DNA from: a virus
Lineage: Duplodnaviria; Heunggongvirae; Uroviricota; Caudoviricetes
Strand: one strand, 5' to 3'
IMG/VR virus record: IMGVR_UViG_2881684137_000004
Coordinates: 1 to 64,000 of that record
DNA length: 64,000 nt
This document shows positions 12,064-45,769 of this stretch, one piece after another. The translations under genes were made by a program, and so were the position numbers. A model generated the notes under the pieces. It was not told where the DNA came from, made no database searches, and worked only from the letters and a program-made list of their open reading frames with translations. Positions within the stretch are counted from its first letter, which is position 1, and each line of letters starts with the position of its first letter.

Positions 12064-12831
12064 TTATGTATTTTGATTATCACCAATTATTTCCACTATA
12101 TATTGCGCCTTTTTGTTTTTTATAGTTGAAATAAGTATTTCGCTAACACCATATTCTTTTGCAAGCTTCACATTGCTGATTCCTGAAAGGGATTTTCTAT
12201 AAACTGCTAAAACTTGCTCGTCGTTTAATTTTCTCAATCTTTGTCTACCATCGTTTTTCAGCCTTTGATCTTTTAACATTTGTATATGTTCTTTTGTAAC
12301 CATTGACTCAAATACAGGAATAAGATGTTTCCAGTTGCTTTTATTCCTCACTCTTTTTGCTGAGCCAGGCTTCATATTGAATTTCTTCACTATGTATTTA
12401 ACACTTCTGTCGTGCAACCAAATATCTAAAACATCATCATCAGTCAAAATTGCATTCCCATTATTCTCTCCAGTTTGCACACCTTCAAATGCTCCGGTTT
12501 CCGATGCGTGTTTCATATTATAGCTTTGATCGCACCATTCCAAATTTGCATAGTGATTGTTTGTTTTATTTCTGTCTATATGATTTACAACATCATATTT
12601 ATCTGGATCTGGATTATGAACAAACAGTTTAGCAACTAATCTGTGGATTTTATACTGCTTGTTAGACAGGTTAACGATTTCATACTCATGTATTTTCAAT
12701 TGATTTTTAAGAACTCTGCCTGTACTATTATTCTTCGCTCTACCAAAATTACTTACACTGTATGTATGACCAAATTTATTAGGCAGAACACTGATTTCAG
12801 CAACATCTTTCCAAATTTCTTCTTCAATCAC
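12064..12831 (-). CDS. HNH homing endonuclease (NUMOD4/HNH_3 with C-terminal helix-turn-helix), free-standing downstream of nrdF
   Basis: HRLVAKLFVHNPDPDKYDVVNHIDRNKTNNHYANLEW motif. Start overlaps the nrdF stop. Confidence 0.8.
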   Translation of the reverse strand: MIEEEIWKDVAEISVLPNKFGHTYSVSNFGRAKNNSTGRVLKNQLKIHEYEIVNLSNKQYKIHRLVAKLFVHNPDPDKYDVVNHIDRNKTNNHYANLEWCDQSYNMKHASETGAFEGVQTGENNGNAILTDDDVLDIWLHDRSVKYIVKKFNMKPGSAKRVRNKSNWKHLIPVFESMVTKEHIQMLKDQRLKNDGRQRLRKLNDEQVLAVYRKSLSGISNVKLAKEYGVSEILISTIKNKKAQYIVEIIGDNQNT

Positions 12832-13886
12832 AGTTCATCAAAACCATTATTATCACTTGTTTTCGAATATTGACGTGACTTATTTTCAAAGAAATCAGTT
12901 TTACCAAGATTCAAGTTTTCATCGCTAAAAACTCTGATCCACGGCATTGAGTTTTCACTTACTCCATCATACACTGGAGAAAAATTCAGCATGCCAAGGC
13001 ATTTATTAGCTCTGTATTCGATGTATTCGCTCATTTCATCAATATCTACATCAATACCATTAAGAACGAAGCGAGACCACTCAGTCTCTAACTCTACTGC
13101 TCTTTTAAACAAGTTTTGCACATAAACCTCAAATACTCCGTCCTTATTAATTTCTGGATATTCACTTATGATTAACTTGAGAAGTAAAGACATAAAATAG
13201 CTATGTGCGAATTCGTCTTTGTTAATATATGAAATCATAGTAGATGTTTTTACCATCTTCTGATTACGAGCAAGGTTGTAGAAAAAGGCAAAGGAAGAAT
13301 AAAAATTGATACCTTCTAGTACAATCGATGCTGCAATTGAATTGCATAGATTAATCGGTGTAGGATTATTCTTAAACTCCTCATAGATATCGATGATCAG
13401 ACTGTTCCGTTCATAAATTTCTTTACGAGTTCTAGCCATATCAAAAGCTTTATTTTGAGATTCAAGTTTCTCAATAGATGACAACACATACGAATAACTC
13501 TGGTTATGAATTACTTCTTGATCCTCAATAACAGACAGTACCATTCTGGCACTAGAATCACTCAGATAGTCCTTCAAGACGCTAAGATAGTTTGGCTGTA
13601 CTGAGTCAAGGATAGATAGTAGCCCAATAATGTTCAGAAAGGATTTTTGTTCGAGTTCAGATAAAGTCTTCCATTGCTTTGCATCATCAATCATAGGGAT
13701 TTCTTCTGGTCGCCAGAAGTTGCTAACTAGGTTTTTGTAAATTTCATAGAATTGTGTGTACTTAATATCGTTCCAGTTCACAATTCCACTCGACTTGCCT
13801 CCAATCAGGAAGTCTGATTTATTTGGAGCAGAAACATCTAAAAATCTTGCTTTACTAAGCGGTTTATTTAAGTTCAAACTTATCAA
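12828..13886 (-). CDS. nrdF: ribonucleotide reductase class Ib beta subunit
   Basis: NWN...NFWRPEEI, ferritin-like di-iron helices. 352 aa, apparently uninterrupted. Confidence 0.9.
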   Translation of the reverse strand: MISLNLNKPLSKARFLDVSAPNKSDFLIGGKSSGIVNWNDIKYTQFYEIYKNLVSNFWRPEEIPMIDDAKQWKTLSELEQKSFLNIIGLLSILDSVQPNYLSVLKDYLSDSSARMVLSVIEDQEVIHNQSYSYVLSSIEKLESQNKAFDMARTRKEIYERNSLIIDIYEEFKNNPTPINLCNSIAASIVLEGINFYSSFAFFYNLARNQKMVKTSTMISYINKDEFAHSYFMSLLLKLIISEYPEINKDGVFEVYVQNLFKRAVELETEWSRFVLNGIDVDIDEMSEYIEYRANKCLGMLNFSPVYDGVSENSMPWIRVFSDENLNLGKTDFFENKSRQYSKTSDNNGFDEL

Positions 13887-14331
13887 TCTCCTTCATTATC
13901 TCATCTATGTAATATAATACTTTGTTCTCTTGTCCATTCAATGGAGACTGCTCTATTTTCAAACTTAATTCCTGAACATTGATACTATGTCTTTTCAAAT
14001 GATATTTTATTTCATCGACTGCTCTGCAATAGTGCATCCATTGCGTTTCACCTGTTCCAAATACAAATGTCATGGGAAAATGAGTCTTATTATCCTTCAA
14101 GTGATAAGAAAGAAATTTTCTCATTCTGGCAGGCAGTTTACCATTTCCCCAAGTGTAAGATCCGATAAGCAGAATATCGGTATCAGCCACTAATTCCTCT
14201 AAGTTAGATTCTTGAGAATGAAGATTGACAGAAGAGACGATACAGCCTCTTCTTATCAATTCTTTTTCGATGATGTCAGAAACTAACTTTGTATTGCCAC
14301 TCATTGAAGCATAAAGAATTGCCACCTTCAT
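13864..14331 (-). CDS. nrdI: NrdI-like flavodoxin
   Basis: MKVAILYASMSGNTK (FMN phosphate loop) and LLIGSYTWGNGKLP. Lies between nrdE and nrdF. Confidence 0.7.
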   Translation of the reverse strand: MKVAILYASMSGNTKLVSDIIEKELIRRGCIVSSVNLHSQESNLEELVADTDILLIGSYTWGNGKLPARMRKFLSYHLKDNKTHFPMTFVFGTGETQWMHYCRAVDEIKYHLKRHSINVQELSLKIEQSPLNGQENKVLYYIDEIMKEIDKFELK

Positions 14332-16610
14332 TACGAAGAGCAGCTTTCACAAGCCTCAGCGATATCAATCGAGGTCGATCTAACATAGTAGGTTGTTTTA
14401 CAACCTTCAGACCAGGCAGTCATGTGAATACTCAATAAATCTTTAGCTTTAATATCGTTTTTAACATAGATGTTAAAACTCTGAGATTGATCAATGTTTC
14501 GCTGTCGTGCCGCATTTTGCCTAACACTCCAAATTTGGTCAATCTCGTGTGCTGATTTATAAAACCAAGTTGTCTTGGAGTTTAGACTTGGGACAGTAAC
14601 AGGAATTTTATAGTTTTTCTTTTCTTCGTAATAGAGTTTATTAAAAACCGGATCAATTGAGGCTGTGCCATTAGCAAGTAATGCGGTACTGCCATTAGGT
14701 GCAACAGCCATAAGCCAACCATTTCTCATTCCCTGGCTCATAACCTGCTTTTTAAGCGCTCCCCAATCATGACGGTCATTGGTTTTATAATTTCTTCTCT
14801 CGAAGTATTTTCCAGTATTCCATTCTGAACCTTTATAAAGCGGATACGAGCCTTTCTCAATAGCTAGGTCAGAACTTGCTTTAATTGCATAATAAGCAAT
14901 TTCTTCATAAAGTTTATCGGCAAATTCTACAGCCTCTTCGCTTTCCCATCTAATACCTTTAATAGCCAAAAGCTCATTCCAAGAGAAGGTTCCCATTCCG
15001 GTTGATCTGTAATTTATATTACTCACTTGAGCTTGAAGGACTGGGATTGTGTTTTGATCGATAACATTATCAAGCATTCTCATCTGGATAGGAATTAGTC
15101 TACTTAATACATTGTCAACCACAGCTCTGCCAAGGTGGATACTTGATAGATTGCAAACAACCATATCCCCTGGCTTCTTGTGAATAATAATTTCTCCATC
15201 TTTAATATATTGCTTAGTGACAGTTGTTGGAGATTGATTATTTACGACTTCAACACACAAATTACTTGAGTAAATCATCCCTGCATGCTTATTAGGATTG
15301 GCACGATTAACAGTGTCACGATAGAACATATATGGAGTTCCAGTTTCAAGTTGGGAAACCATAATACGTTTCATGATGTCGATTGCCGCAACTTTATCTT
15401 TATTCAAATCGTTACAACGAACGCATTCTTCATATCGCTCTCTGAATTCTCCGTTTCCTTTTTCATCATCAAAAAAATCTTCAAGGCACCAACCCATAAC
15501 ACTTTTTACTTCGTGAGGATCAAAAAGATACCAGTCCGCTCTTTTCTCAACCTGCTCCATGAATAAATCTGGAAGACAAACTGCTGTAAAAATATCATGC
15601 GCTCTCTGTCTCTCATCACCATTATTTAGTTTTAAATCAAGGAATGACATAATATCTTTGTGCCACACATCCAAGTACACCGCGACCGATCCACTTCTAG
15701 TTCCTAACTGGTCAACTGATACTGCGGTGTTATTAAGCTGCCTAATCCACGGAATAACACCTGAACTGACATTTTTAAATCCTTTAATATCAGAACCTCT
15801 GCTACGAATTTTACCCACGTACGCGCCTATTCCACCGGAATTTTTTGATAAGTTTGCAATATCTGTATTAGAATCATATATTCCTTGCAAACTGTCTTCA
15901 ATAGTATCAATAAAGCAACTAGACAATTGACCATAAGACTTGCCAGCATTACTGAAGGTTGGTGTAGCCACAGTCATGTATTGGTTCGACAATGCCCAAT
16001 ACGCTTCTTTTACTAGTTCCATTCGCTTCTCTTTCTCTTCATCAGACATGAGAACGAGAGCAATGGTTAGATATCTCTCTTGCGGTAGCTCATAAATTTC
16101 TCCTGCATATCCTTTTGCAAGATATCTATCCACCAATGTCTTTAGGCCAATGTATGTAAATAGATAATCTTTCTCCGGTTCTATGTATGAATTGGCTAGT
16201 TTTATTTCTTCATTAGTATATTTTTTCAAGATGGTCTCTGAGTAGATACCCATTTCTCCAAGCTTTTTGAGAATCCCATAGTAGCTACCATATTTATCCC
16301 CAGGATCATATGAACGATTGTATCCTGCCTCTTTATAGAGTCTTTTCAGATATAGTCTAGCAGCCACATGTGTCCATTCCGTCTCGGATGTTGTAATGTT
16401 ATCCAAAGCATTGAGGACAAGTTTATTGCTAATTTCAGATGCTTTAATTTCTTTCTGAGAAAGAATAGATTTAATTGTTCTCTCACTAAGATTATCCGAT
16501 TGAAGATTAGGAAAATCGGACATAACTTTTTCTACATGCCTCACTAACCTTTGTTCATCGAATTCTAATTTCTGAATCTGCGACTTTCTGTCTTTTAACA
16601 CTTGTGTCAA
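14331..16610 (-). CDS. nrdE: ribonucleotide reductase class Ib alpha subunit
   Basis: 759 aa. Catalytic NLC.E region and C-terminal CESCSS redox Cys pair. No intein or intron apparent. Confidence 0.9.
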   Translation of the reverse strand: MTQVLKDRKSQIQKLEFDEQRLVRHVEKVMSDFPNLQSDNLSERTIKSILSQKEIKASEISNKLVLNALDNITTSETEWTHVAARLYLKRLYKEAGYNRSYDPGDKYGSYYGILKKLGEMGIYSETILKKYTNEEIKLANSYIEPEKDYLFTYIGLKTLVDRYLAKGYAGEIYELPQERYLTIALVLMSDEEKEKRMELVKEAYWALSNQYMTVATPTFSNAGKSYGQLSSCFIDTIEDSLQGIYDSNTDIANLSKNSGGIGAYVGKIRSRGSDIKGFKNVSSGVIPWIRQLNNTAVSVDQLGTRSGSVAVYLDVWHKDIMSFLDLKLNNGDERQRAHDIFTAVCLPDLFMEQVEKRADWYLFDPHEVKSVMGWCLEDFFDDEKGNGEFRERYEECVRCNDLNKDKVAAIDIMKRIMVSQLETGTPYMFYRDTVNRANPNKHAGMIYSSNLCVEVVNNQSPTTVTKQYIKDGEIIIHKKPGDMVVCNLSSIHLGRAVVDNVLSRLIPIQMRMLDNVIDQNTIPVLQAQVSNINYRSTGMGTFSWNELLAIKGIRWESEEAVEFADKLYEEIAYYAIKASSDLAIEKGSYPLYKGSEWNTGKYFERRNYKTNDRHDWGALKKQVMSQGMRNGWLMAVAPNGSTALLANGTASIDPVFNKLYYEEKKNYKIPVTVPSLNSKTTWFYKSAHEIDQIWSVRQNAARQRNIDQSQSFNIYVKNDIKAKDLLSIHMTAWSEGCKTTYYVRSTSIDIAEACESCSS

Positions 16611-19672: not shown

Positions 19673-20527
19673 CTATTCTAAAAATTCTTTAGGCAGTTGT
19701 AGAATTCCTGAATCCGATCCCCATACTTTAGGGAATTGAACATCCTTGATATTCTTTACAAATTCCCAAGTGATAATGTTACTGTTGATTGATTGCTGAA
19801 TGAGACGATTCGATTCGCTTTCACCACGAGCTTTTTCAATAGCAGAATCAGCTACTCCTTTTGCTTCCTCTCTTTTCCGTTGAGCTTCTTTCTTTGCGAT
19901 TTCAAGCTCAGTGTTTTTGCGCTCTAGTTCTTGTGCTGCTTCTACACGTTTGTCAATAGCTTCCTGTGTTTTTGCATCTGGTTTTGGAACACCAACTGTT
20001 ACGTTAGAGACAATGAATCCAAGCTTAGCAACATCTTCAGAGAATTGTTTCTGAACCTCAATAGCTGCCTCTGATGACTTTTCTCCATATACATCAATCA
20101 CTGTAAACTTTGAAATTGATTTACGTGCTGCATCCCAAAAGCGTGTGCGTAGATATGTATCTTCGATTTCACTAACTGGAATTGGCCCGAATGTATTAAA
20201 AATATATGAAACTTTATCTGGTTCAATTTGGTAATTGAATGCAAAATCAATCGTGATATTCTTACCATCGGAGGTTGCAATTTGAATTTCTTTGTATTCT
20301 TTAGTTTGCATGCGAACAGGATACTTGGTTACTTTATCAAATAGACCTGTTACTTGCCATCCTTGTCCTAGATTCGCATCTTTCACACCACCGTTTGGAG
20401 AATATACAATCCCCACATAGCCATTTGGAATTCTCACAGTCACCATCATAGCGACAATCAATCCGACAATCAATATTGCACCAATTACGCTTGCACCAAT
20501 TCTAAAGAAATTCATTTTTATTATCAT
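19673..20527 (-). CDS. SPFH (band 7 / prohibitin-HflK/C-like) domain membrane protein
   Basis: N-terminal TM helix, SPFH core (GYVGIVYSPNGG...), C-terminal coiled coil. Start placed at MIIKMNFF after RBS AGAGGATGA. The 302-aa track ORF extends further upstream. Confidence 0.7.
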   Translation of the reverse strand: MIIKMNFFRIGASVIGAILIVGLIVAMMVTVRIPNGYVGIVYSPNGGVKDANLGQGWQVTGLFDKVTKYPVRMQTKEYKEIQIATSDGKNITIDFAFNYQIEPDKVSYIFNTFGPIPVSEIEDTYLRTRFWDAARKSISKFTVIDVYGEKSSEAAIEVQKQFSEDVAKLGFIVSNVTVGVPKPDAKTQEAIDKRVEAAQELERKNTELEIAKKEAQRKREEAKGVADSAIEKARGESESNRLIQQSINSNIITWEFVKNIKDVQFPKVWGSDSGILQLPKEFLE

Positions 20528-20662
20528 CCTCTTGTTTTTTATTTTTGAAGGGTTGTATCTTTGTATCAATGTACTTTCCAATCTTATAATACAAGGGTGC
20601 CATTAGAATCCATAAAACACCCATAAGCATTATAATGACAATGCAGCCAGCCAAAATTTGAA

Positions 20663-21215: not shown

Positions 21216-22898
21216 TTATCTGTAATCGTCAATGAAAACTTGTTTAGTTTTTTCAATCTTAAATTTGGGTTTGAATACTTTCCATTCATTTAAATTCAAA
21301 TTACCGATGACATCAATTGTCTTATCAATAGGAAACTCTTCCAAATACTCTGTTTCGACTCTGAATTTTAATACAGTGAGATTAGGCTTTTTACTTTCCA
21401 GGTCACTCTTTTTCATGGCCCAGGTTGCTGATTCAGCAAATCCAGAAGCTTTCAGTGTGTCTAGGTTTTTTCCAATCGTATCTTTTTTAACTATGTATAA
21501 ATCTTTGATGAGAAATTTAGGCTCTGGACATTCATTCCCACTGACTTTTGCAAACTCTGCAACATCATTAATTAGCTTTTCTGTAATGTCTGACACATTA
21601 ACCGCAAAGTCATATTCAACTTCATAATCAAATCTCACATCATTTAATCCTTTATTTAAACTCAACTGAAATGCGTCAAGAGTGTTCCTTTTAATCCCCA
21701 CTCCTCCAGCACCAGGATGTCCACCTGAGAATAAAACCTCTGGCATTGAGCCAACAAAGCTCAGAAAATTGAATCCTGCAAATGACCTGAAGCTACCATG
21801 AAATTCGTCATCATTCTCCGCTGACTTTCCAAGTACAATAACTGGACGCTTAAACTTGTTAGCAATATCAGAAGCAATCAATCCATTCATATTTTTCCCG
21901 AGTGTTTCATCGACAATAATAATACATTTGCTACTTAAATCAATTGCTGGGACTATTCTTTCAATAGCAGCCTTTTGTTTAATCTTACGTTCTTCATTCA
22001 TAGCTTGCAATTCTCTTGCAAGCTTTTCTGCATATTTTTCATCTTTTGTTGTTAATAGCTCAATAGCCATTTCGATTTTATCCATTCTTGAAGCTGCGTT
22101 TAAGAATGGAGTGACACCAAATGAATAATCTGTAGACGTTAGCTTGCTCGTGTCTTTTTTTAATACTTTTAAAATAGCTTTAACACCTGGATTCTTGACA
22201 TTTTCAAGCGATGATTTTACTATGTATCGATTCTCTTCCTTCAACATTGACATTTGATCACTATGTAATCCAATTCCAGCTAAGTCAATTAAATCATCTG
22301 AATAGCTTGTCAAGAAATGATCATCTAACACCTGACAGACTTTCCATGCTAACAGTGAACCTGAAGTATGCTTATTCGGATAATTACAATCTTTATGCTT
22401 GTCATTTAATAAGATACAATAATCATTTTCGACATTCACTTCATGGTGATCAATGATAATAATATCGATGCCACGTTCACTGATTTCCTTGCATGCTTCC
22501 CATTCATTGCTGCTGCTATCCAGGACGATAAGTAAATCCGTATTCTCTGGAACTTCATCTTTCCTGAGATGAACTCCATGACCTTCAGAACGTTGAGCAT
22601 GAAAATATTTAACTTTTTTTGTGAAATTAATTAAATAATTAAAAATTATTGCTGTTGAATTCTCACCATCTGCATCAATATCAGCATGTAATGAAATATT
22701 CTCATTATTGAATATCGCTTTCATTATTCGCTCTTTTACTTTTTCAATATTCCTTAGTAGATATGGGCTATGCAACTCTTTAGTTGTCGGATTCAGATGT
22801 TTCTCTAAATCTTTTATCCCTCTTATCTTCCCAAGTTTTTCTTTTAGTTCATCTCCTTTATTGTATTTAGTAATGGGAATCTTTTCTTTCCAAGCCAT
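21216..22898 (-). CDS. DHH-family single-stranded DNA exonuclease (RecJ-like; cf. SPbeta YorK)
   Basis: DHH motifs (ADIDADG, IIIDHH) and DHHA1 (GGHPGAGG). Confidence 0.85.
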   Translation of the reverse strand: MAWKEKIPITKYNKGDELKEKLGKIRGIKDLEKHLNPTTKELHSPYLLRNIEKVKERIMKAIFNNENISLHADIDADGENSTAIIFNYLINFTKKVKYFHAQRSEGHGVHLRKDEVPENTDLLIVLDSSSNEWEACKEISERGIDIIIIDHHEVNVENDYCILLNDKHKDCNYPNKHTSGSLLAWKVCQVLDDHFLTSYSDDLIDLAGIGLHSDQMSMLKEENRYIVKSSLENVKNPGVKAILKVLKKDTSKLTSTDYSFGVTPFLNAASRMDKIEMAIELLTTKDEKYAEKLARELQAMNEERKIKQKAAIERIVPAIDLSSKCIIIVDETLGKNMNGLIASDIANKFKRPVIVLGKSAENDDEFHGSFRSFAGFNFLSFVGSMPEVLFSGGHPGAGGVGIKRNTLDAFQLSLNKGLNDVRFDYEVEYDFAVNVSDITEKLINDVAEFAKVSGNECPEPKFLIKDLYIVKKDTIGKNLDTLKASGFAESATWAMKKSDLESKKPNLTVLKFRVETEYLEEFPIDKTIDVIGNLNLNEWKVFKPKFKIEKTKQVFIDDYR

Positions 22899-24888: not shown

Positions 24889-25344
24889 TCATTTTCCTTC
24901 CAATTTGTAAAGGGTAACTTCATAATCTTCGAATACCTCAGCTATTATACCCTTTACTACATTCCAATCAGCTCCACCTCGATCAGAACCAATTTTATAA
25001 GGAAGTGCTACTGAATAATTATGTCTTTTAGCAAAAAATTTGAGATCCGTTAACGTTGCTTTTAAAGCAGACAGATCGGTGAATTGCTTTCCATAACCAT
25101 AACCATCTTGAGCAAAGAGATTTGCAACAATTTTGGAGTAATTGTCCACTGCTGTGAACTGACATTTTCCCAGTATTTTTGGAGAGTGCATCTCTATAAA
25201 AGCTTTATATGTAACAAGCAAATCACTATACTTGTCACTAAGCTGTTTAGCAACACCGGAACCCATTACACCCTTACAGTTTACTTGATGGCCAATAATA
25301 TCTTCAGTTGCCTGTAATAAATCACCTTCTATAAGTTTTATCAA
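24889..25344 (-). CDS. macro domain protein (ADP-ribose binding / ADP-ribosyl hydrolase family)
   Basis: IEGDLL...HQVNCKGVMGSGVA matches the macrodomain G-D-I...N...GGGV motif pattern (cf. YmdB/MacroD). Confidence 0.75.
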   Translation of the reverse strand: MIKLIEGDLLQATEDIIGHQVNCKGVMGSGVAKQLSDKYSDLLVTYKAFIEMHSPKILGKCQFTAVDNYSKIVANLFAQDGYGYGKQFTDLSALKATLTDLKFFAKRHNYSVALPYKIGSDRGGADWNVVKGIIAEVFEDYEVTLYKLEGK

Positions 25345-27658: not shown

Positions 27659-29479
27659 CTATGCAGCAGCAATACTTTCAACAATATATTTGTACAAGTT
27701 TTTCGGTTTTTCATGCTTGAACCTAATTAAGTCCAATGCGTCTACAACTCTTTTTAGGTTCATCAGTATAAACTTGTAATCTTCGATATCGAGTTCTGTA
27801 CTTAATTCATTCCTTAGTTTACATTTTTCGATGATAATTCGATCTAAATATGCCTTATTATTCATTGCATCATAATACACAACACTATCTTCTACCTCTT
27901 CTGTGATTATTCCCAAAGCATCCACTTCTGTCTGTCTGATTACCATTACATCACCGATTGAAAATACATTGTGTTCAAACCCTACGATTCTGCTAATCAT
28001 TTCAAGAATCATCATAGCTCGCTCTTCCTGTGTGGATAAGCTAGTATTTGAAACACATCCTTTGAGCTTCACTTTTTCATTTAAGTTTGAAATATGTATT
28101 ATATTCTTATCTTTAGAAAGTAATTTTAGAATTCGGTCTTCTACTTTATTGTCAGAAACAACTATTTTCATTTTGTAATGTATGGCTATTTTTATTTTCT
28201 TTTCTTGTTCCAGTACTTCGTTGAAGTTGAACCAGAAGATTGTCTCATCATCGAAAAGTTCTGATCCCTGTTTAATATAAATATCATCTGAATCTAGTTC
28301 AAACCTTTCTATGTAACCAAGAGTACCACTACTTCCACTATAATGTCGCACACCACGAGCTTCTGGTGCTTTGTTTTCAATATCTGCTTGCATTTCCACA
28401 TTATCAAAATGTCCTACCGATTGTCGTACTGCTTCTTGTTTTAAAAATACATTATATTGATTTAAAGTTGTGATGTCTGGATTATCTAATTTGTCTAATG
28501 CGATTCCTAATAAGTATTTTTTTTGCTCCTTTTGTTCTGTATCAAGAACATTGAAAGCTATCTTATCTTTTACAGAATTTTCATCGATATGATTATTGAT
28601 TGCATCAATGTATGTTTCGATGTCAGATGCTTGTCCATTTAAAAAACTATCTTCTGTCAATTCACTTGCGTATTTTTTAATCAAACTTATAAATGAGTAA
28701 TATTTATCATCTCGAATAATATCTTTTCTATCTGGAGCTGTTAAATTTAGTGCTCTATCTGTTATGTGCAAATCACCTTTCAAATAGTAGAAGCTGTCTA
28801 ACTTTGTAATAAATCTTCCTTTATAAAATAACTTAAGTTCTTGACTGAAATTAGTCAAAGCTATCCAGCCTTTGAACAACTCGTTATCTTCAATGACTTT
28901 TAAAAAAGTACTATTGTCTCCTTCAGTTAAATCCTTTTTTATTTGCAGCTCCCCATTATAATAGATATCTAGTTCATGAATGTATCTACCCAACAATTCG
29001 ACTCTTTCTCTTATGGAGTATGAAGGGAATTGAGAAAAATCAAAATGATTAAGTATGAGTTTAAAACCTTTACGCTCTTCATTTTTTTCATTTACTATGA
29101 TTTCAGTATTATTTGTTCTAATCATATTCTCAACATCGAATACAATATGTTTTTTGCCGCTGTATACTTCTATGTAGTTGCTAACTGTAATGTTACTAAA
29201 GAAACCCATTCCAAAAGGAGACTCTTGTTTTTGTACATCCTCATCCCACTCTGACTCCGCAATTGAAAACAATGCTTGCGGATTGTTTAATATTGCTCCG
29301 TCATTTTCAATTATTACTCTATTATTTAATGTGTCTGTTGTCACGTACACCTTAGAAGCTTTGGCTCTCTGAGCGTTTTGAACAGTCTCGTCTAAAAATG
29401 ATAGTTTATCCTTAAATGTGCTTTGTCTTAGAAGTTTTAACTGGTTAATAACATTTACTTTCACTTCAACATTGCTCAT
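27659..29479 (-). CDS. GHKL-superfamily ATPase (Hsp90/MORC/MutL-like Bergerat fold), 606 aa
   Basis: N box ETVQNAQRA, G1 box IENDGAI, G2 box SPFGMGFFS in the N-terminal ~110 aa. Long C-terminal region of unknown fold. Confidence 0.65.
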   Translation of the reverse strand: MSNVEVKVNVINQLKLLRQSTFKDKLSFLDETVQNAQRAKASKVYVTTDTLNNRVIIENDGAILNNPQALFSIAESEWDEDVQKQESPFGMGFFSNITVSNYIEVYSGKKHIVFDVENMIRTNNTEIIVNEKNEERKGFKLILNHFDFSQFPSYSIRERVELLGRYIHELDIYYNGELQIKKDLTEGDNSTFLKVIEDNELFKGWIALTNFSQELKLFYKGRFITKLDSFYYLKGDLHITDRALNLTAPDRKDIIRDDKYYSFISLIKKYASELTEDSFLNGQASDIETYIDAINNHIDENSVKDKIAFNVLDTEQKEQKKYLLGIALDKLDNPDITTLNQYNVFLKQEAVRQSVGHFDNVEMQADIENKAPEARGVRHYSGSSGTLGYIERFELDSDDIYIKQGSELFDDETIFWFNFNEVLEQEKKIKIAIHYKMKIVVSDNKVEDRILKLLSKDKNIIHISNLNEKVKLKGCVSNTSLSTQEERAMMILEMISRIVGFEHNVFSIGDVMVIRQTEVDALGIITEEVEDSVVYYDAMNNKAYLDRIIIEKCKLRNELSTELDIEDYKFILMNLKRVVDALDLIRFKHEKPKNLYKYIVESIAAA

Positions 29480-29800: not shown

Positions 29801-29845
29801 TTCTCCTTCCTGTTATTTTTTTGATATGGATAACTATACCATCAC

Positions 29846-29902
29846 AATCCTAATAGTGCAACATAATATTTTTATATTTTATATTATTGCACTACTAGGA
29901 TT
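29846..29902. repeat. 16-bp inverted repeat (AATCCTAATAGTGCAA / TTGCACTACTAGGATT) with 25-nt AT-only spacer
   Basis: 15/16 complementary arms in the intergenic region between the primase gene and the downstream gene. Confidence 0.6.
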
Positions 29903-29985
29903 TATTTAAATGCTATAAAAGAGGAATTTTATACTAAAAAGAGCACTAAAAAAGACAATGAAATCAAGAGTTTTGAAACAGGAAA

Positions 29986-31086
29986 TTAGTTAATTCTGAA
30001 GTTTTCATAAGAATCATAAAGCTGCTCAAATATTTCCCTTCCTTTATCGACCGGAGAATCTTTCTCTTCCTCGGAAAGTAAGTCTTCGCTATCCCACAAA
30101 GCAAAAACACTTCGATTCATACCAAACTTATCACCTTGTTTCTTAACATCTTCAATCCCTTTGTCCTTGTCCATTGCAATTATTACTCTGATCCCTGAGC
30201 CTAAGTCTTTGATTAACTTCACTTGTTGAGCGCTCAAATCGTCGCCGCTTATGGCTACACAGTTAGCATAACCATACTGTGTAGCTAACCAGCAGCTCTT
30301 TTCTCCTTCAAAAATTATAACTTCTTTTCTAATTAAAATATGAGTTAACGCTTTGTGGAAATTGTATAGTTCAATCACTTTATTGAAGTTATACAAATAC
30401 ATGAACTTATAAATCCCTTTTTTGTCGTAATCTTTGTGAATTGTCCTTCCTTTGATAGATACGATATCTCCATATTGATTGTGAACAGGAAAAATGATTC
30501 GTTCAGACAAAACATCAACGCCTATTTGAAAATCCACTTGTGTCTCTTTATCAATTCCTTCGCTAACATACTCTCGATACGGCTTCATCACATATTGATC
30601 TAAGACTGAATCTTCATATATTTTGTTTTCACTATATTCTTTAATGCTACTTTTCTTTCGACTGTTTTTGACCGACTTCAGCCAACTAAGATGATCAATC
30701 TTAACCGGATTTTTCAAATCAAAAGCTACTTTTCCCTTATAGTGCTTTAATTCATAGCCTAAGACATCACAAATCCATTGTTTTGCTTCATATAATTTAC
30801 GTTTTCTGCTTTCTTCAGTGTAAGAATTGAATTCTATGTATGAAACAAGGCCATAGATATCTATATTGCTTATACTCCTCGATCTAATACGACATTGCAA
30901 ATACTCTGTATTGTACACCTGGACAGACCTTGGATTATCGGAATTAAATTTGTCAGGTAATTGTGCTTCGAACCTATTTGACCTATCTACGATGTTTTTG
31001 CAGCCCAATTTTAACAGCAGTTTACTGATTTGATTCTCATTATAAATTTTATTTTTAATCTCGATTAAGTCATTTTCACTGCTCAA
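29986..31086 (-). CDS. DNA primase, DnaG-like TOPRIM domain
   Basis: TOPRIM signature IIFEGEKS...AMDKDKGIED. Confidence 0.75.
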   Translation of the reverse strand: MSSENDLIEIKNKIYNENQISKLLLKLGCKNIVDRSNRFEAQLPDKFNSDNPRSVQVYNTEYLQCRIRSRSISNIDIYGLVSYIEFNSYTEESRKRKLYEAKQWICDVLGYELKHYKGKVAFDLKNPVKIDHLSWLKSVKNSRKKSSIKEYSENKIYEDSVLDQYVMKPYREYVSEGIDKETQVDFQIGVDVLSERIIFPVHNQYGDIVSIKGRTIHKDYDKKGIYKFMYLYNFNKVIELYNFHKALTHILIRKEVIIFEGEKSCWLATQYGYANCVAISGDDLSAQQVKLIKDLGSGIRVIIAMDKDKGIEDVKKQGDKFGMNRSVFALWDSEDLLSEEEKDSPVDKGREIFEQLYDSYENFRIN

Positions 31087-31098
31087 ACTATCACCTCA

Positions 31099-32592
31099 TC
31101 AGCGTTCACGACCGTTGTTCTTAACTCTAGCCCAACAAACTTCTTTCCAGATATTTAGATCGGATATCACCTCATAAATAATTTGCTCATTTTCACTACC
31201 TTCACGATTCTTGGGAAGAAATAAAATCAAATATTTCTTTTCTTTATCTAATATGTATTCTTCCTCGTCAATTGTCCCGTCTTTTTGTTTCTTGTAATTA
31301 TAGCAATCAAATGAATTTCTTTCACCAGGGTATTCATCATCAAATACTAAGCGGCCTGCTATCACTACGGCTGCAACCTCTACAATCTCCATCGATTTAC
31401 CAATGCTGTCCAGATCAACATATCTAAACTCTTTACCTATTTTCATTTGTACTGTTGCCAAAGTTGCACAATTGTAATTCTCCTCTTTTACACAATCATG
31501 CAGCTCTTGTGCTGAGTTGGAGAATGCAAGCCATCGATCTGACTGTTGGGATAAATCTGGTTTAAAAGTATCGAAATAAATATAGCGGTAGTTCAATGGT
31601 CTGTGCAATTCAATGTTATTTATTACATCTTCAATCCTGTATTTCTTGAGAACAATCAGTTTGATAAAGTCTGGCTGATTTTGAGATAGCCATACAGCTG
31701 CTTCAAGCAATATTTCTTTTGTTTCCTTTGAATATTTCCCTCTATTAACAACATCTCGTGGGATAGGTTTTTTTAGAATCCTAGAAGCAACTGTTGCTAA
31801 CAACCTACCCTGCCATCTTTTCTTCCCTTCCTCATTTACAAAAATAATCGCTTTTTGAAATTGTAAATTGTTCTTCGGATTGAGTGCCTTAACGTTATGA
31901 TCAAAAATAGAAAGAACATATTTTTCAGTAACTATGCTACTTTTTCCTACTCCAGAGGAGAGAACAAGATACACTAGGTTACCAAGCTTTTGCCCATTAA
32001 TCCGTCTTGTCAGCCTTGGTGCATCAAAAAGTGGTAGACCCACCTCTTCACCCTTGTCTAATTCTTCAACCATTTCGACAATATCCTCTGTGAGATTGTA
32101 TACAACCACATCTCCTGAATTAATATGAGCAAAAGAGGTTTTAAACTGGTGTTGACAATATGTCAGTAATTGTTTTAATGACATATTTGCCAACTTCTCT
32201 ACATACTCTTTTTCTTCTATATTAATTAGATAATTATCTTGCATCTTCCTTAAAGATTCATACTTTTGTATCTCACTTAAATGATAATCATCATTCGGCT
32301 TTGAGGTGGAGCATTCATCCATCACTTCTTTAATTGTTGCGTAACCTCCGAACTTATCATATGTATCAAAATAAGAAGACTTACCCTTTTCCTTTGGCTT
32401 GGAGATCAGATATGTGTAAACAGTACTATCCTCAAATGTTCGGATTCCACTTTCATACATTTGAAGGCCAATTAAATAATAGAAGTACCATATGCTCTTT
32501 GTAAAAGTAGATTTTTCTATTTTATGAGATTTGTACTTAGAATAGAGATTAGGATTAAACCACAACGTACCAACTAATAATGTTTCATGCAT
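31099..32592 (-). CDS. replicative DNA helicase, DnaB-like (cf. SPbeta YorI)
   Basis: N-terminal DnaB-like domain and RecA-like core with Walker A LSSGVGKSS. Confidence 0.8.
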   Translation of the reverse strand: MHETLLVGTLWFNPNLYSKYKSHKIEKSTFTKSIWYFYYLIGLQMYESGIRTFEDSTVYTYLISKPKEKGKSSYFDTYDKFGGYATIKEVMDECSTSKPNDDYHLSEIQKYESLRKMQDNYLINIEEKEYVEKLANMSLKQLLTYCQHQFKTSFAHINSGDVVVYNLTEDIVEMVEELDKGEEVGLPLFDAPRLTRRINGQKLGNLVYLVLSSGVGKSSIVTEKYVLSIFDHNVKALNPKNNLQFQKAIIFVNEEGKKRWQGRLLATVASRILKKPIPRDVVNRGKYSKETKEILLEAAVWLSQNQPDFIKLIVLKKYRIEDVINNIELHRPLNYRYIYFDTFKPDLSQQSDRWLAFSNSAQELHDCVKEENYNCATLATVQMKIGKEFRYVDLDSIGKSMEIVEVAAVVIAGRLVFDDEYPGERNSFDCYNYKKQKDGTIDEEEYILDKEKKYLILFLPKNREGSENEQIIYEVISDLNIWKEVCWARVKNNGRER

Positions 32593-32643: not shown

Positions 32644-33258
32644 CTATTGTAGTAGGTCTGTGATGTCGAGTTCATCTTTACTGTTTGCATAAACATGACT
32701 GTTTTCTTCTTCGTTGCTATCGTCAATAACGGAAAGATTATGTATTTTTCTATTTAATTCTTTGGTCTTGTTCGCTTCGAATTTTTCCCGTTTTTTTCTT
32801 CTTAGCCATGCTTCGTTTAATTCTCCAATCATAATACTTATACAGTAATTTATTGCTCTGACATCATTGCTCCCTCTAAGTTTATTTTTAATGCACCATT
32901 GAATACTATCGTCTGCAAGAGCATAAGCTTCAAGCATTAAACTGTACTCAGCTCCCATTTTGAATCTCTTCTCTCTCTTACCTTTAACAACGTCATAGCC
33001 ATTTCTTAAAGCTTGTAGACGTATAATAATTGCTTTTGGCATTTCAATTAGCTGGTGTAGTTCTTTAACATACAGGAATAACTCATCCCATTTCTCAAGC
33101 TCTTTCGCTGTGTATTCTCTTTGTTCTATGTATTTATTATTACATCCTTCAATGCAAACATATCTTTTTTCGTTTGCAGGAACCATCAGATTAATATCTT
33201 CTTGGATTCCACAAATCAAACACTTCCTCTTCGTCACCTTCCTCTTCACTTCCGTCAT
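32644..33258 (-). CDS. hypothetical protein (possible zinc ribbon CLICG...CIEGC)
   Basis: ORF. Start uncertain; the 5' end overlaps the 3' end of the helicase gene in another frame. Confidence 0.4.
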   Translation of the reverse strand: MTEVKRKVTKRKCLICGIQEDINLMVPANEKRYVCIEGCNNKYIEQREYTAKELEKWDELFLYVKELHQLIEMPKAIIIRLQALRNGYDVVKGKREKRFKMGAEYSLMLEAYALADDSIQWCIKNKLRGSNDVRAINYCISIMIGELNEAWLRRKKREKFEANKTKELNRKIHNLSVIDDSNEEENSHVYANSKDELDITDLLQ

Positions 33259-35260
33259 CTGCAACATAACCTCCATACTCAAAGTCAATATAATCTGTAA
33301 TAAATCTACTCGGAAACGCCTCTTTATTTCTGTATTGTTGAACAAAACTAAGATTCAGCTCTTCTTCTGCTCGTGTGACTAAAACATAGAACAGCCGATT
33401 TTCTTCTTCAAGAGCCTGTGCTGGTGAGATGCTGTCTGAACACTCATTTAATGCAGAACTATGAGGAAGCACTGTCTCATTCATCAGAATCCCAAATACG
33501 TGTTTGTATTCCAATCCCTTAGACTTATGTATGGTCATTAATTTAACAGCATCTTTATTTCCAAATCCTTTAGATTCTTTTTGCTTCTTTGCATTTTTAA
33601 TGACCCTATTAACAAATCTGATATATGAACCAATATCTTCGTATCGCTTACTGGAGTTCTCTAATTCATCCAGGGTTTCGATGATAATCTCCCTGTGTAA
33701 TGAAGTAGTTTCGCTGTCATCATCTCCAATAAGATATTTTTCATAATCTTCTCTCAAGACCTTCAGAGCGATAATAGGCTTATAATCTTCAATTCGTTTC
33801 AGCGCGGATAGTTTATCAGCCACTTTTCTTTTTGCATATTGATTGTCGATCAAATTCAAAACATGCTCAATTGGTCTAGCTATAGGACTTTGTTTCTGTA
33901 ACTTACCGATATCAACTATTTTATCCTTCCTAATGTACATTGTTGGAAGTACCTCTCCAATTGCATTGAAATCATATGGATCAGCAATGACTCTCAAAAA
34001 GGCAAGTAGTGGTTTGACTATAGAGTTTTCATAAAAAACATCGTCTGTACTTGATGTGATGAAAGGAACATCACTTAACAGCAACTCTTCAAATATAGCT
34101 CTTGAATTAGAATTGGTTCGATATATGATCGCGAAATCAGAATACTTAGCGTCTTCGAGCTTTACTTTTTCCTTAATTTTTTTGGTAATCTCAGCTGCTT
34201 CGTGATCAGCAGATTCATAAACTTTTATACTTGGATAGATACTTGATTGCTTCGAAGCTAACGATTCTTTTTCAAGTCTCATCTTGTTCTTTTTGATTGC
34301 ATCATTAGCAAGCCCCAAAATGGTATTTGTTGACCTATAATTTGTATTCATCATAATAATTTTTGTTTCTGGATACCTTTTGGGGAAGTTTAAAATATTT
34401 TGTATCCTAGCTCCATTGAATGAAAATACACACTGATCTGAGTCACCAATTATAACCAAATTATTCTTCGGTGCTGTGATCATTTCAATGATTTCAAATT
34501 GCAGTAAATTTGTATCTTGAGCTTCATCAACCATTATGTATTGATATCTGTTTCTGATTGATTCTAATAGTGATGGATCTGACTTAAGCAGATGATAACA
34601 GTCTAGTCCCATATCGTCGAAATCGAGCAGATCTTTATCTCTCTTATATTCCTCATACTTATTCCATATTTTATAAATTTCAAGATTACAATTATCACTT
34701 TTACGATAATCCTTTAATGTCTTGAGCTGATTCTTGCAACTAGAAATCAACGAAAGGATATCTTCTGGTCTATATTTCTTCTCGTCAATTCCTAAAGACC
34801 GTGTAATCATTTTTATTGTGATTTGCTTGCTTTTGTCACTTGATAATATCCCTCGTTCTTCACCGTTCTCCCTCAGTATCTTTAAAAAGAAGCTATGAAA
34901 AGTTCCAGCAGTCACTTTTGAAAGTTCTTTCTTAGTGTTTAATCCAAGTTTAACTGCCTTTTCAATCATTTCTTTTGCAGCAGTTTTAGTAAACGTTATA
35001 AGTAAAACATTACTTAAATCAACTTTATGTATCTTATTTAAATATGAAAGCCTTGAAACTACTGTTGAGGATTTACCTGCACCTGCAACAGCGTTGACTA
35101 GTGCAAAGTTTTCTCTGTGTCGAACAAGTTCGATTTGACCACTGTTTAGTTTGATGTTTAGTTCTTCAAGCTTTCTGAAAAAATGAGAATCAGTGTCGGT
35201 ATCACTTACTAAATCTAGACTGGTAAGGCCATTAGACATTTGAGCTTTAGCGTATTTCAA
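33191..35260 (-). CDS. UvrD/PcrA/Rep-family SF1 DNA helicase
   Basis: Walker A AGAGKSS, FTKTAAKEM, DEAQDT, NYRS, TIHKSKGLE, VLVTRA motifs. TTG start with RBS GGGAGG. Confidence 0.85.
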   Translation of the reverse strand: MKYAKAQMSNGLTSLDLVSDTDTDSHFFRKLEELNIKLNSGQIELVRHRENFALVNAVAGAGKSSTVVSRLSYLNKIHKVDLSNVLLITFTKTAAKEMIEKAVKLGLNTKKELSKVTAGTFHSFFLKILRENGEERGILSSDKSKQITIKMITRSLGIDEKKYRPEDILSLISSCKNQLKTLKDYRKSDNCNLEIYKIWNKYEEYKRDKDLLDFDDMGLDCYHLLKSDPSLLESIRNRYQYIMVDEAQDTNLLQFEIIEMITAPKNNLVIIGDSDQCVFSFNGARIQNILNFPKRYPETKIIMMNTNYRSTNTILGLANDAIKKNKMRLEKESLASKQSSIYPSIKVYESADHEAAEITKKIKEKVKLEDAKYSDFAIIYRTNSNSRAIFEELLLSDVPFITSSTDDVFYENSIVKPLLAFLRVIADPYDFNAIGEVLPTMYIRKDKIVDIGKLQKQSPIARPIEHVLNLIDNQYAKRKVADKLSALKRIEDYKPIIALKVLREDYEKYLIGDDDSETTSLHREIIIETLDELENSSKRYEDIGSYIRFVNRVIKNAKKQKESKGFGNKDAVKLMTIHKSKGLEYKHVFGILMNETVLPHSSALNECSDSISPAQALEEENRLFYVLVTRAEEELNLSFVQQYRNKEAFPSRFITDYIDFEYGGYVADDGSEEEGDEEEVFDLWNPRRY

Positions 35261-41921: not shown

Positions 41922-42587
41922 CTAGGAAATCGCATGATTCGACATGCTGGAACTTTTTAATAGAGATTGAAAGCCTCTCAGAATCATTTGGGGAATAATC
42001 CGACTCTCTGAGAATCCATAAAATCCACATGAAAACAAGCAGTGTATTTCAATAAGGAACGTTCCTTCGATATCGTTTAAGCCAACATCAATCGTATAAG
42101 CAGCTGGAGAGTAGGTATAATTTCGAATCATTTTATTTATAAGGTTGATATCAGGCATTTTAGTGAAGTCTCCAGAATAATTCTGAATTCCCACCAATTT
42201 TCCATTGTGTACAAAACCTCTCCATTCAGATTCAATATTCATAATCCTGGATACTATGTATTCTCCTTCAGGAATATGTTCTCTTTTTGACCCATGGATA
42301 ATTCCAGTGTAACCCTTTACCTTATTATTACTTTTTACGAACACATCTTCTTTCGGGAAATATTCACTATGCTTTTCTAATAATATAGGCATCCTTTTTA
42401 GATATTCAAAACTCCATAATTCTGCTGGAATGTTAATTGGTTTTATTTCGCTATGAATGTCATGATAATTAGACAAATATTTTCTAATAAACTCTATTGT
42501 CCCTGAAGGCGTATAGTTTGAATAATCATGCTCAAACATATCGTGCTTAACTTGGCCATTGATTGTTTGAATAAGAAAGTCTGCCAT
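41922..42587 (-). CDS. ATP-grasp-like domain protein
   Basis: SEWRGFVHNGKLVG (E-[YW]-R-x-F-V motif) and C-terminal IDVGLNDIEGTFLIEIH (D...E-x-[NH] metal-binding loop). Confidence 0.55.
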   Translation of the reverse strand: MADFLIQTINGQVKHDMFEHDYSNYTPSGTIEFIRKYLSNYHDIHSEIKPINIPAELWSFEYLKRMPILLEKHSEYFPKEDVFVKSNNKVKGYTGIIHGSKREHIPEGEYIVSRIMNIESEWRGFVHNGKLVGIQNYSGDFTKMPDINLINKMIRNYTYSPAAYTIDVGLNDIEGTFLIEIHCLFSCGFYGFSESRIIPQMILRGFQSLLKSSSMSNHAIS

Positions 42588-45433: not shown

Positions 45434-45769
45434 TTAGATTAATCTTGCTCCTGTTACCTCAGTAAAATCTACCCACTCATACCCCTCACTAAAGTTAATT
45501 CTAAATTTCTTACTGTGACTTGAAATTTGAGAAACTGTTCCACTTATCATCCTGTCTCCATAAAGTGTAAACAAATTAACTTCAATCCCAAACCCCTCAA
45601 GATAGGAATCGCTTATACTTCGAAGAATAATCTCCCATTCATCTTCATGTATAATTGGTTTGCTACGCTTCTTATGGTTTTCCTGGCTTTCATTTATACG
45701 CTCTTTGTGCTCAGGCAACATCATCCGCGATGATTCCCAAAGGCCATTACCAGTGAGTTTCTTGCTCAT
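45434..45769 (-). CDS. yolD: YolD-like protein (partner of the Y-family polymerase)
   Basis: MLPEHKE motif and size (111 aa). Immediately downstream of the Y-family polymerase gene and overlapping it, as in B. subtilis uvrX-yolD / yqjW-yqzH. Confidence 0.7.
   Translation of the reverse strand: MSKKLTGNGLWESSRMMLPEHKERINESQENHKKRSKPIIHEDEWEIILRSISDSYLEGFGIEVNLFTLYGDRMISGTVSQISSHSKKFRINFSEGYEWVDFTEVTGARLI

Follow-up and report, generated by a model that had tools for sequence, protein, structure and literature searches.

A phage GHKL protein of Hsp90/sacsin type with a degenerate zincin domain in an SPbeta-like prophage of Paenibacillaceae

Introduction

What does a large GHKL-type ATPase do in the replication region of a temperate phage, and what is the long C-terminal part that follows its ATP-binding domain? 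The question is raised by a gene for a protein of 606 amino acids (aa) in the caudoviral record IMGVR_UViG_2881684137_000004 of IMG/VR, of which positions 1 to 64,000 were analyzed (this stretch of 64,000 nucleotides (nt) is called the window in the following). A preliminary description of the gene, made from the sequence alone, had recognized a Bergerat-fold ATP-binding domain, had found no recognizable motif in the remaining approximately 480 residues, and had proposed either a DNA-handling ATPase resembling MutL, MORC or topoisomerases or a part in anti-defense. According to our analysis, the protein belongs to a large, unnamed family that is carried mainly by phages and prophages of Bacillota and is built from an Hsp90/sacsin/MORC-type GHKL domain, an S5-like domain, a helical region, a disordered linker, an alpha/beta subdomain and a minimal zincin-fold domain, so that its C-terminal domain is protease-derived. 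Much is known about GHKL-S5 ATPases such as Hsp90, MORC, MutL and the type II topoisomerases, yet the literature searched did not yield any account of one that is joined to a zincin. The family itself is almost entirely metagenomic or prophage-borne and carries no functional annotation. Its structural annotation is well supported, while the function is one that we infer.

The gene and its N-terminal half

The preliminary description had placed the open reading frame (ORF) correctly but had omitted that it lies on the minus strand. It is a complete coding sequence that begins with ATG and is preceded, at a distance of 9 nt, by the ribosome-binding site AAGGAG. That it is a real gene and not a chance reading frame follows from a copy with 100% identity (P0001), listed as 'hypothetical protein EBB07_28270 [Paenibacillaceae bacterium]' on a contig of 467 kb, and from about 200 full-length homologues (~610 aa, 46-61% identity, E-values down to 1e-229) in Paenibacillus genomes and many metagenomes. 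The gene product is a soluble, acidic, stand-alone protein with an isoelectric point (pI) of 5.1 and no transmembrane segment; its most basic part is the alpha/beta subdomain (pI 8.0), and no domain is strongly basic. Residue numbers count Met as 1; in alignments A1 and A2 and in the AlphaFold model, from which Met1 is absent, they are one lower. The coordinates of all features are given in Table 1.

Residues 1 to approximately 257 are modeled as a GHKL domain followed by an S5-type second domain (AlphaFold2 model with 27 homologues, predicted local distance difference test (pLDDT) 78.7), and the first of these shows the alpha/beta sandwich of the Bergerat fold. A profile of 66 family members was aligned by hhalign with Escherichia coli HtpG over residues 5-107 (probability 96.6%, E 5e-10), pairing E31 with E34, N35 with N38, Asn59 with Asp80, and the G2 box SPFGMGFFS (residues 87-95) with GQFGVGFYS of HtpG, which bears out the Bergerat fold and the Hsp90-like G2 box of the preliminary description. 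Two domain models matched the protein below their thresholds, namely Pfam HATPase_c_3 (19.2 bits, cut-off 25) and the NCBIfam sacsin-like ATP-binding domain (27 bits, cut-off 50). The profile search against PHROGs returned no match for the protein, and sequence searches of the PDB with full-length and C-terminal profiles returned nothing meaningful.

The motifs of the ATP site are partly intact. The N-box has the canonical ExxxN (E31-x3-N35), in which Glu31 would act as the catalytic base and Asn35 would bind Mg2+; both residues are found in 268/268 full-length family members. The G2 box is likewise complete (F89-G90-M-G92-F-F-S), and its Gly90 and Gly92 do not vary among the 66 aligned members. 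The G1 box of the window protein does not have the DxGxG pattern but reads N59-D-G61-A-I63, with Asn59 in place of the adenine-binding Asp and Ile63 in place of the second Gly, while the G1 box of the sister clades is canonical, D(D/N)GxG. At the end of the second domain, none of the residues Pro249, Asp250 and Arg251 varies across 66 diverse members, and the Asp-Arg pair is found in all aligned sequences of the 268-member set. Arg251 is the putative sensor of the gamma-phosphate, by analogy with the Arg in the 'NLSRE' motif of Hsp90. Read from the residues, the signals of the ATP site are therefore mixed: the predicted catalytic Glu, Mg-binding Asn and sensor Arg appear to be kept, but the adenine-binding Asp is lost. 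We posit that the nucleotide site is probably still used, though in a modified way.

A degenerate zincin domain at the C-terminus

The part of the protein in which no motif had been recognized can be divided into five parts, among them the S5-like domain and a degenerate zincin (Table 1). The helical region that follows the S5-like domain leads into a disordered, acidic linker of ~50 residues. The linker contains a PEAxG motif that might be a docking motif or former cleavage motif for the protease-derived domain.

The evidence for the zincin comes from distant members of the family (19-30% identity), in which the 66-member alignment shows HELAHxxxxTxDNTxxH in the C-terminal helix that aligns with VVDALDL of the window protein. 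Among the 66 members, Pfam recognized Peptidase_M78 in 6/66 and SprT-like in 1/66. A separate AlphaFold2 model of window residues 405-606 (pLDDT 90.7) places the HExxH-aligned helix at model residues 161-180, and the elements of the zincin fold, a beta-sheet, the active-site helix and a following helix, are present. The scaffold motifs IGDxxV, YxDR and DYKF, which are common to active-looking relatives, are kept as well. The HExxH motif, which 85/268 family members retain, is gone from the window protein: Asp580 stands for the first His, Ala581 for the Glu and Leu584 for the second His, and the segment xxTxDNTxxH, which follows in active-looking relatives and supplies the third ligand, is deleted. 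With both His ligands and the catalytic Glu replaced, the C-terminal domain of the window protein, judged by its sequence, cannot be a zinc peptidase.

Among the minimal zincins, we compared the domain with the minigluzincins projannalysin/selecase, Wss1/SprT-Spartan, M78 ImmA/IrrE and the M13 neprilysin core. The homologues resemble these in that the aligned helix carries HExxH and, further downstream, a His or Asp. The window protein differs from them in that it has neither zinc ligands nor the catalytic Glu, and in the alpha/beta subdomain that precedes the zincin domain.

Family size, coupled motif loss and conservation

An exhaustive HMMER search returned at least 1,684 cluster representatives (50% identity) at E <= 1e-3, 728 of them at E <= 1e-10 and 161 at E <= 1e-30. 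The best 150 representatives are mostly 560-700 aa long and align over their full length. Their source databases name the members only 'hypothetical' or 'ATP-binding protein', ten distant members that were checked being equally uninformative, and the sole PHROG match in the family is phrog_6203 (function unknown), found in 9/66 members. In one-genome-per-species data, the window's clade occurs in Paenibacillus, Lachnospiraceae, Clostridium tagluense and Aminipila. A scan of IMG/VR with alignment A1, that of the window's clade, identified 35 viral contigs that carry the family, mostly 90-205 kb in size. A further word-index search, made with the diverse alignment A2, gave mostly the close relatives again among the candidates listed. 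Among 50,697 genomes of cultured phages, no match was found to the gene (megablast, tblastn) or to the distant relatives P0150 and P0218 (tblastn).

The altered G1 box and the lost HExxH motif go together. In a census of 268 full-length members, 167 combined the G1 Asn with absence of HExxH and 84 the G1 Asp with its presence; Asp without HExxH was counted 16 times and Asn with HExxH once. The change of the G1 Asp and the loss of HExxH are thus tightly coupled in the family.

Within the window's clade, conservation is highest in the GHKL domain, with a mean identity to the window protein of 70% and 58 of 150 positions invariant. The S5 domain follows with 65% and the zincin-like domain with 43%, while the linker and helical region reach 32-36% (helical region 36%). 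This pattern indicates strong purifying selection and not a decaying gene. The family offers a natural comparison between sister clades with both catalytic centers intact and the window's clade, in which both have been altered in a coupled way under strong purifying selection.

Proposed function

The reading that we prefer, and to which we give about an even chance, is that the protein acts in phage-host conflict as a nucleotide-gated clamp, expressed early, whose protease-derived domain binds a target without catalysis. By analogy with Hsp90, MORC, MutL and GyrB, nucleotide binding at the Bergerat fold would probably close an N-terminal dimer, in which Arg251 would complete the site. On this basis, the ancestral members of the family probably used their tethered zincin to cleave a target protein in a nucleotide-gated manner. 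In the window's clade, which keeps the scaffold of strands and helix, the target would no longer be cut but, most likely, captured or sequestered uncleaved in a modified nucleotide cycle. The gene lies in co-directional early arrays with variable accessory neighbors and has no fixed partner, and the target is for these reasons most likely a protein and not DNA. It would be a protein of the host or of a competing element, in keeping with the host take-over or counter-defense proposed for T4 rIIA. Of the roles considered in the preliminary description, anti-defense stays the most plausible class.

A role in conflict is supported by three precedents. Fusions of GHKL domains to effectors are known from paraMORC-HEPN (PMC3710099), the zincin is the commonest, or hub, domain of the 'polyvalent proteins' of phage conflict (PMC5512222), and rIIA combines a GHKL domain with a variable C-terminus and acts in counter-defense (PMC7824862). 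Like MORC, paraMORC and SMCHD1, the family has an N-terminal GHKL and S5 clamp fused to a C-terminal effector and occurs in conflict contexts, and the GHKL and S5 module of MORC is present in the window protein. Unlike MORC and paraMORC, it has no CW, coiled-coil or HEPN domain, and its effector is a zincin, dead in the window's clade. We did not assign the protein to MORC itself, as HATPase_c_3 stayed below threshold and the window contains no restriction-modification neighbors.

The likeness to T4 rIIA is of a similar kind. Both are phage-encoded and early-expressed (putatively so for the family), have ~600-750 aa, and carry an N-terminal GHKL domain with a variable C-terminus (PMC7824862); where the family has APDRK, T4 rIIA has APSRE. 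T4 rIIA differs in having no HExxH motif. The statement of the preliminary description that GHKL ATPases are uncommon in phages does not hold against the structural data, since a Foldseek search of BFVD matched 89 viral proteins at E <= 1e-3, including rIIA, phage topoisomerase II and Hsp90-like proteins. The best match is a giant-virus Hsp90, and rIIA is the most frequent named class among the viral structural neighbors (E 1e-12 to 1e-9, with a TM-score of only ~0.3). Membership in rIIA was rejected at the sequence level: alignment A2 matched T4 rIIA in hhalign with a probability of 15%, in the GHKL core only, and no rIIA PHROG was matched. None of the 20 neighboring ORFs scanned, which are part of the ORFs of the window, matched an rIIB PHROG; rIIB is poorly conserved.

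Several points weigh against a nucleotide-gated clamp in counter-defense. The D79N mutant of yeast Hsp90, which has the equivalent Asp-to-Asn exchange, cannot bind ATP, and the nucleotide-gated step may therefore not apply to the window's clade. The hhalign alignment with HtpG stops at residue 107, and the equivalence of Arg251 is drawn at the level of a motif. Furthermore, an invariant Phe (Phe139) appears, when aligned by eye, to take the place of the motif-IV Thr of Hsp90 and GyrB (GFKL versus GTKV) in the whole family, including the clades with intact DxGxG, and the nucleotide pocket may hence be unusual across the whole family and not only in the window's clade. Finally, two distant HExxH-bearing members lie in cellular, defense-island-like contexts, one beside NERD, DUF87 and SecA and the other beside DpnII; from these contexts the family could be defensive rather than counter-defensive.

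A bolder version of the clamp reading, which has to be considered unlikely, is that the family represents an unrecognized class of nucleotide-gated proteases in phage-host conflict, in which a GHKL clamp of Hsp90/sacsin type would feed a target to the tethered minimal zincin or position it there, and that the window's clade is a 'double-dead', non-cleaving trap or decoy kept by large temperate phages of Bacillota. A host immune protein might, for instance, be sequestered by such a trap, or the dimers of an active homologue be poisoned, and the Asp-to-Asn exchange might re-tune the site to another nucleotide such as a 6-oxo purine or a signaling nucleotide. If the role that we prefer is true, the contrast between the clades would provide a tractable route to a new mechanism of phage conflict and to the obscure biology of the rIIA-like GHKL proteins of phages.

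Alternative explanations

Of the alternatives, prophage defense or superinfection exclusion is doubtful but fares best. The GHKL domain would here sense an invader, and the C-terminus would be an effector or recruit one, making the gene a 'moron' that benefits the lysogen in the manner of Tiamat TmtA or the paraMORC fusions. TmtA has a comparable sacsin-like GHKL core, and its models match 13/66 family members (best E 2e-11). The two distant members mentioned above, whose neighbors are NERD with DUF87/AAA_10 and DpnII, are found in contigs that do not look like phage, and genes for TIR, SIR2, DndB and PemK are located nearby in related phages. The similarity to TmtA is, however, confined to the GHKL core. 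In the PADLOC search of the window protein, TmtA was the sole match, and a weak one (13.5 bits, E 2.5e-3, profile positions 72-172 of 1486 only); size and C-terminal architecture being entirely different, the protein is not a Tiamat component. A defense role also fits poorly with a gene that is embedded co-directionally in a lytic replication array, with a putative effector protease that is dead in the window's clade, and with the retention of the family by many large phages as a near-core gene of the early region.

An Hsp90-like chaperone or holdase for phage proteins such as the replisome, with the C-terminus as client-binding and dimerization domain, is in our view improbable. HtpG gives the best sequence-profile relationship, the giant-virus Hsp90 is the top match in BFVD, and genes of the replisome lie close by in the window. 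With Hsp90 (HtpG, TRAP1, GRP94) and the SRR module of sacsin, the protein shares the Bergerat fold, an Hsp90-type N-terminal helix, ExxxN and FGxGF(F/Y)S. The N-box is of the ELIQNA type known from sacsin, Pfam SACS matches 5/66 members, and an invariant Arg after the second domain, seemingly NLSRE-like, recalls Hsp90. Against this stand the differences from Hsp90: the second domain of the family is much shorter, the C-terminus is zincin-derived and not the dimerization domain of Hsp90, the adenine-binding Asp is an Asn in the window's clade, and a Phe takes the motif-IV Thr position. The active-looking protease motif of the sister clades implies degradation and not folding, and no conserved linkage to any client gene was found. 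The preliminary description had named an HtpG fragment or a histidine kinase as outcomes that would speak against it, and neither was borne out. Only the N-domain aligns to HtpG, and Pfam HSP90 matched neither the window protein nor any of the 66 members (0/66); a HisKA/DHp domain and a partner response regulator, which would mark a sensor histidine kinase, are missing. Should the protein be only an accessory chaperone after all, the value of the analysis would be modest and annotational.

The DNA-handling ATPase of the preliminary description, a MutL-, MORC- or topoisomerase-like protein that works with the primase and helicase in replication, repair or recombination, is clearly less probable. 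It draws on the position of the gene in the window between a primase (YorJ-like) and a RecJ-like exonuclease (YorK-like). The position downstream of primase and helicase was correctly described, with a 101-aa ORF (orf101) in between. Tblastn searches with the neighbors of the window showed the order of helicase-primase, GHKL and YorK genes only in two further IMG/VR loci (L037 and L046). Seven loci have the GHKL gene between genes for ribonucleotide reductase (RNR) and DNA polymerase III (PolIII), and most loci have none of these genes within 10 kb. The co-occurrence with primase and helicase genes that the preliminary description had suggested looking for is thus not conserved, and in Bacillus phage Goe12 the primase gene is directly followed by yorK. 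The protein itself is acidic, with only the alpha/beta subdomain mildly basic, its C-terminus is protease-derived, and no Toprim, MutL C-terminal, nuclease, CW or coiled-coil DNA-binding domain was found. MutL was rejected for want of the MutL_C dimerization/endonuclease domain, and a subunit of type II or IIB topoisomerases (GyrB, ParE, Topo VI-B, Topo VIII) for want of Toprim and of a 5Y-CAP A-subunit. Plasmids of Paenibacillus carry Topo VIII, but the idea of a Topo VIII or Mini-A protein was likewise dropped, with neither a Toprim nor a 5Y-CAP domain found.

A decaying pseudoenzyme of no important function, which the loss of HExxH and the substituted G1 Asp might suggest, is highly improbable given hundreds of sequences at 46-61% identity that keep their full length without frameshifts, 58 invariant GHKL positions, and invariant E31, N35, G90, G92 and R251.

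Genomic context

The window is an SPbeta-like prophage of a Paenibacillaceae genome. The closest cultured relative of its helicase is found in Goe12 (Spbetavirus; 53% identity), and no near-identical DNA is present among the 50,697 cultured phage genomes, so that the window appears to belong to an uncultured lineage. Positions 1-47000 form a replication and nucleotide-metabolism region on the minus strand, whose genes are nearly all co-directional (Table 1). The GHKL gene is part of this lytic replication array and shares its direction, with gaps of 5-15 nt. As no GHKL gene separates primase and yorK in Goe12, it can be assigned to a variable insert of the replication module.

Table 1. Features of the GHKL gene, its product and the surrounding early region of the window.
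Feature	Residues	Position	Strand	Remark
GHKL gene, complete coding sequence	606 aa + stop	27659..29479	minus	ATG start at 29479; ORF list and translation
GHKL (Bergerat-fold) domain, Hsp90/sacsin type	1-151	29027..29479	minus	
N-box DETVQNAQRA	30-39	29363..29392	minus	aligns to HtpG E34, N38
Altered G1 box ENDGAIL	58-64	29288..29308	minus	alignment columns, HtpG alignment
G2 box / ATP-lid motif SPFGMGFFS	87-95	29195..29221	minus	
Second domain, S5-fold transducer or Hsp90-middle-like	152-257	28709..29026	minus	
APDRKD motif, at end of second domain	248-253	28721..28738	minus	
Helical region	258-354	28418..28708	minus	AlphaFold2 pLDDT 77-94
Disordered acidic linker	355-404	28268..28417	minus	pI 4.6; AlphaFold2 pLDDT 29-55
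PEAxG motif in linker	372-376	28352-28366	minus	Ala and Gly invariant in A1 (window's clade)
Small alpha/beta subdomain	405-481	28037..28267	minus	
Degenerate minimal zincin-fold domain	482-606	27662..28036	minus	
VVDALDL, remnant of HExxH active-site helix	578-584	27728..27748	minus	alignment A3 and motif census
Y-family polymerase		45766-47013	minus	
R2K-clade ATP-grasp protein		41922-42587	minus	accessory gene of early region
UvrD helicase		33191-35260	minus	
233-aa protein		32644-33345	minus	phrog_6344 (function unknown)
DnaB-like helicase		31099-32592	minus	YorI-like
DnaG-type primase		29986-31086	minus	YorJ-like
Gap between primase gene and orf101 (~186 bp)		29801..29985	minus	promoter-like hexamers and near-palindrome
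orf101	101 aa	29495-29800	minus	15-nt gap from GHKL gene start
About ten small ORFs, one a phosphatase		between 22898 and 27659	minus	
Phosphatase		24889-25344	minus	phrog_335; accessory gene of early region
RecJ-like exonuclease		21216-22898	minus	YorK-like
SPFH/Band-7 protein		19673-20581	minus	accessory gene of early region
RNR large subunit		14331-16610	minus	class I RNR
RNR small subunit		12828-13886	minus	class I RNR
PolIII alpha		3739-7644	minus	YorL-like

The surroundings of the gene differ widely among its relatives, and an all-against-all BLASTP comparison of the ORFs within 4 kb in 8 loci revealed no conserved adjacent gene. On a 142-kb contig (P0110), the GHKL gene is located upstream of a TIR protein, followed by homologues of YorF, YorG, YorH, DnaB, primase and YorK, while in a Paenibacillus donghaensis prophage (P0006) it is found between RNR/ThyX genes and a split PolIII gene. 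On a 121-kb contig (P0056) it stands among small ORFs, with a ligase as the sole replication gene nearby. The gene of the HExxH-bearing P0150, on a 41.7-kb phage contig, directly follows the lysis cassette and precedes a family-A polymerase, P0270 lies near NrdD, SIR2 and an integrase, and P0151 precedes an SNF2 helicase in a phage-like gene array.

Accessory genes of the conflict type were observed around the GHKL gene in related phages, namely TIR (ThsB-like), SIR2, DndB, PemK and an MrpR-like recombinase (L004 14258-15058; L008 13259-14029; L002 2507-7551). In SPbeta-like genomes, defense or counter-defense cargo may preferentially collect in this region. In the P. donghaensis prophage (L006 15644-20178), PolIII alpha is split into a 406-aa PHP/N-terminal part and a 675-aa finger/C-terminal part with a 314-aa ORF of unknown function between them, which points to a split gene or to a mobile element that has come in between.

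Minor observations in the window

The small gene orf101 and the GHKL gene probably belong to one transcription unit. In 8 related loci, from prophages or IMG/VR, homologues of orf101 (33-40% identity) were found upstream of the GHKL gene at a distance of 2-5 kb, a loose, non-adjacent co-occurrence. Its product had no match in Pfam, PHROG or PADLOC. The gap upstream of orf101 contains promoter-like hexamers at 29910-29883 with an extended -10 TG, which are consensus matches only. Overlapping them is a 41-bp, near-perfect, AT-rich palindrome (TAGTGCAATAATAT...ATATTATGTTGCACTA) at 29854-29894. The gap could be a candidate promoter/operator of the unit with the GHKL gene, or the palindrome could alternatively be an AT-rich terminator of the primase operon. 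A repeated operator was ruled out, as the palindrome occurs a single time in the window.

The listed 233-aa ORF between the UvrD and DnaB-like helicase genes has a TTG start and shares ~155 nt with the 3' end of the UvrD gene. Its match to phrog_6344 starts only at residue 38, and its true start is therefore probably downstream of the listed one.

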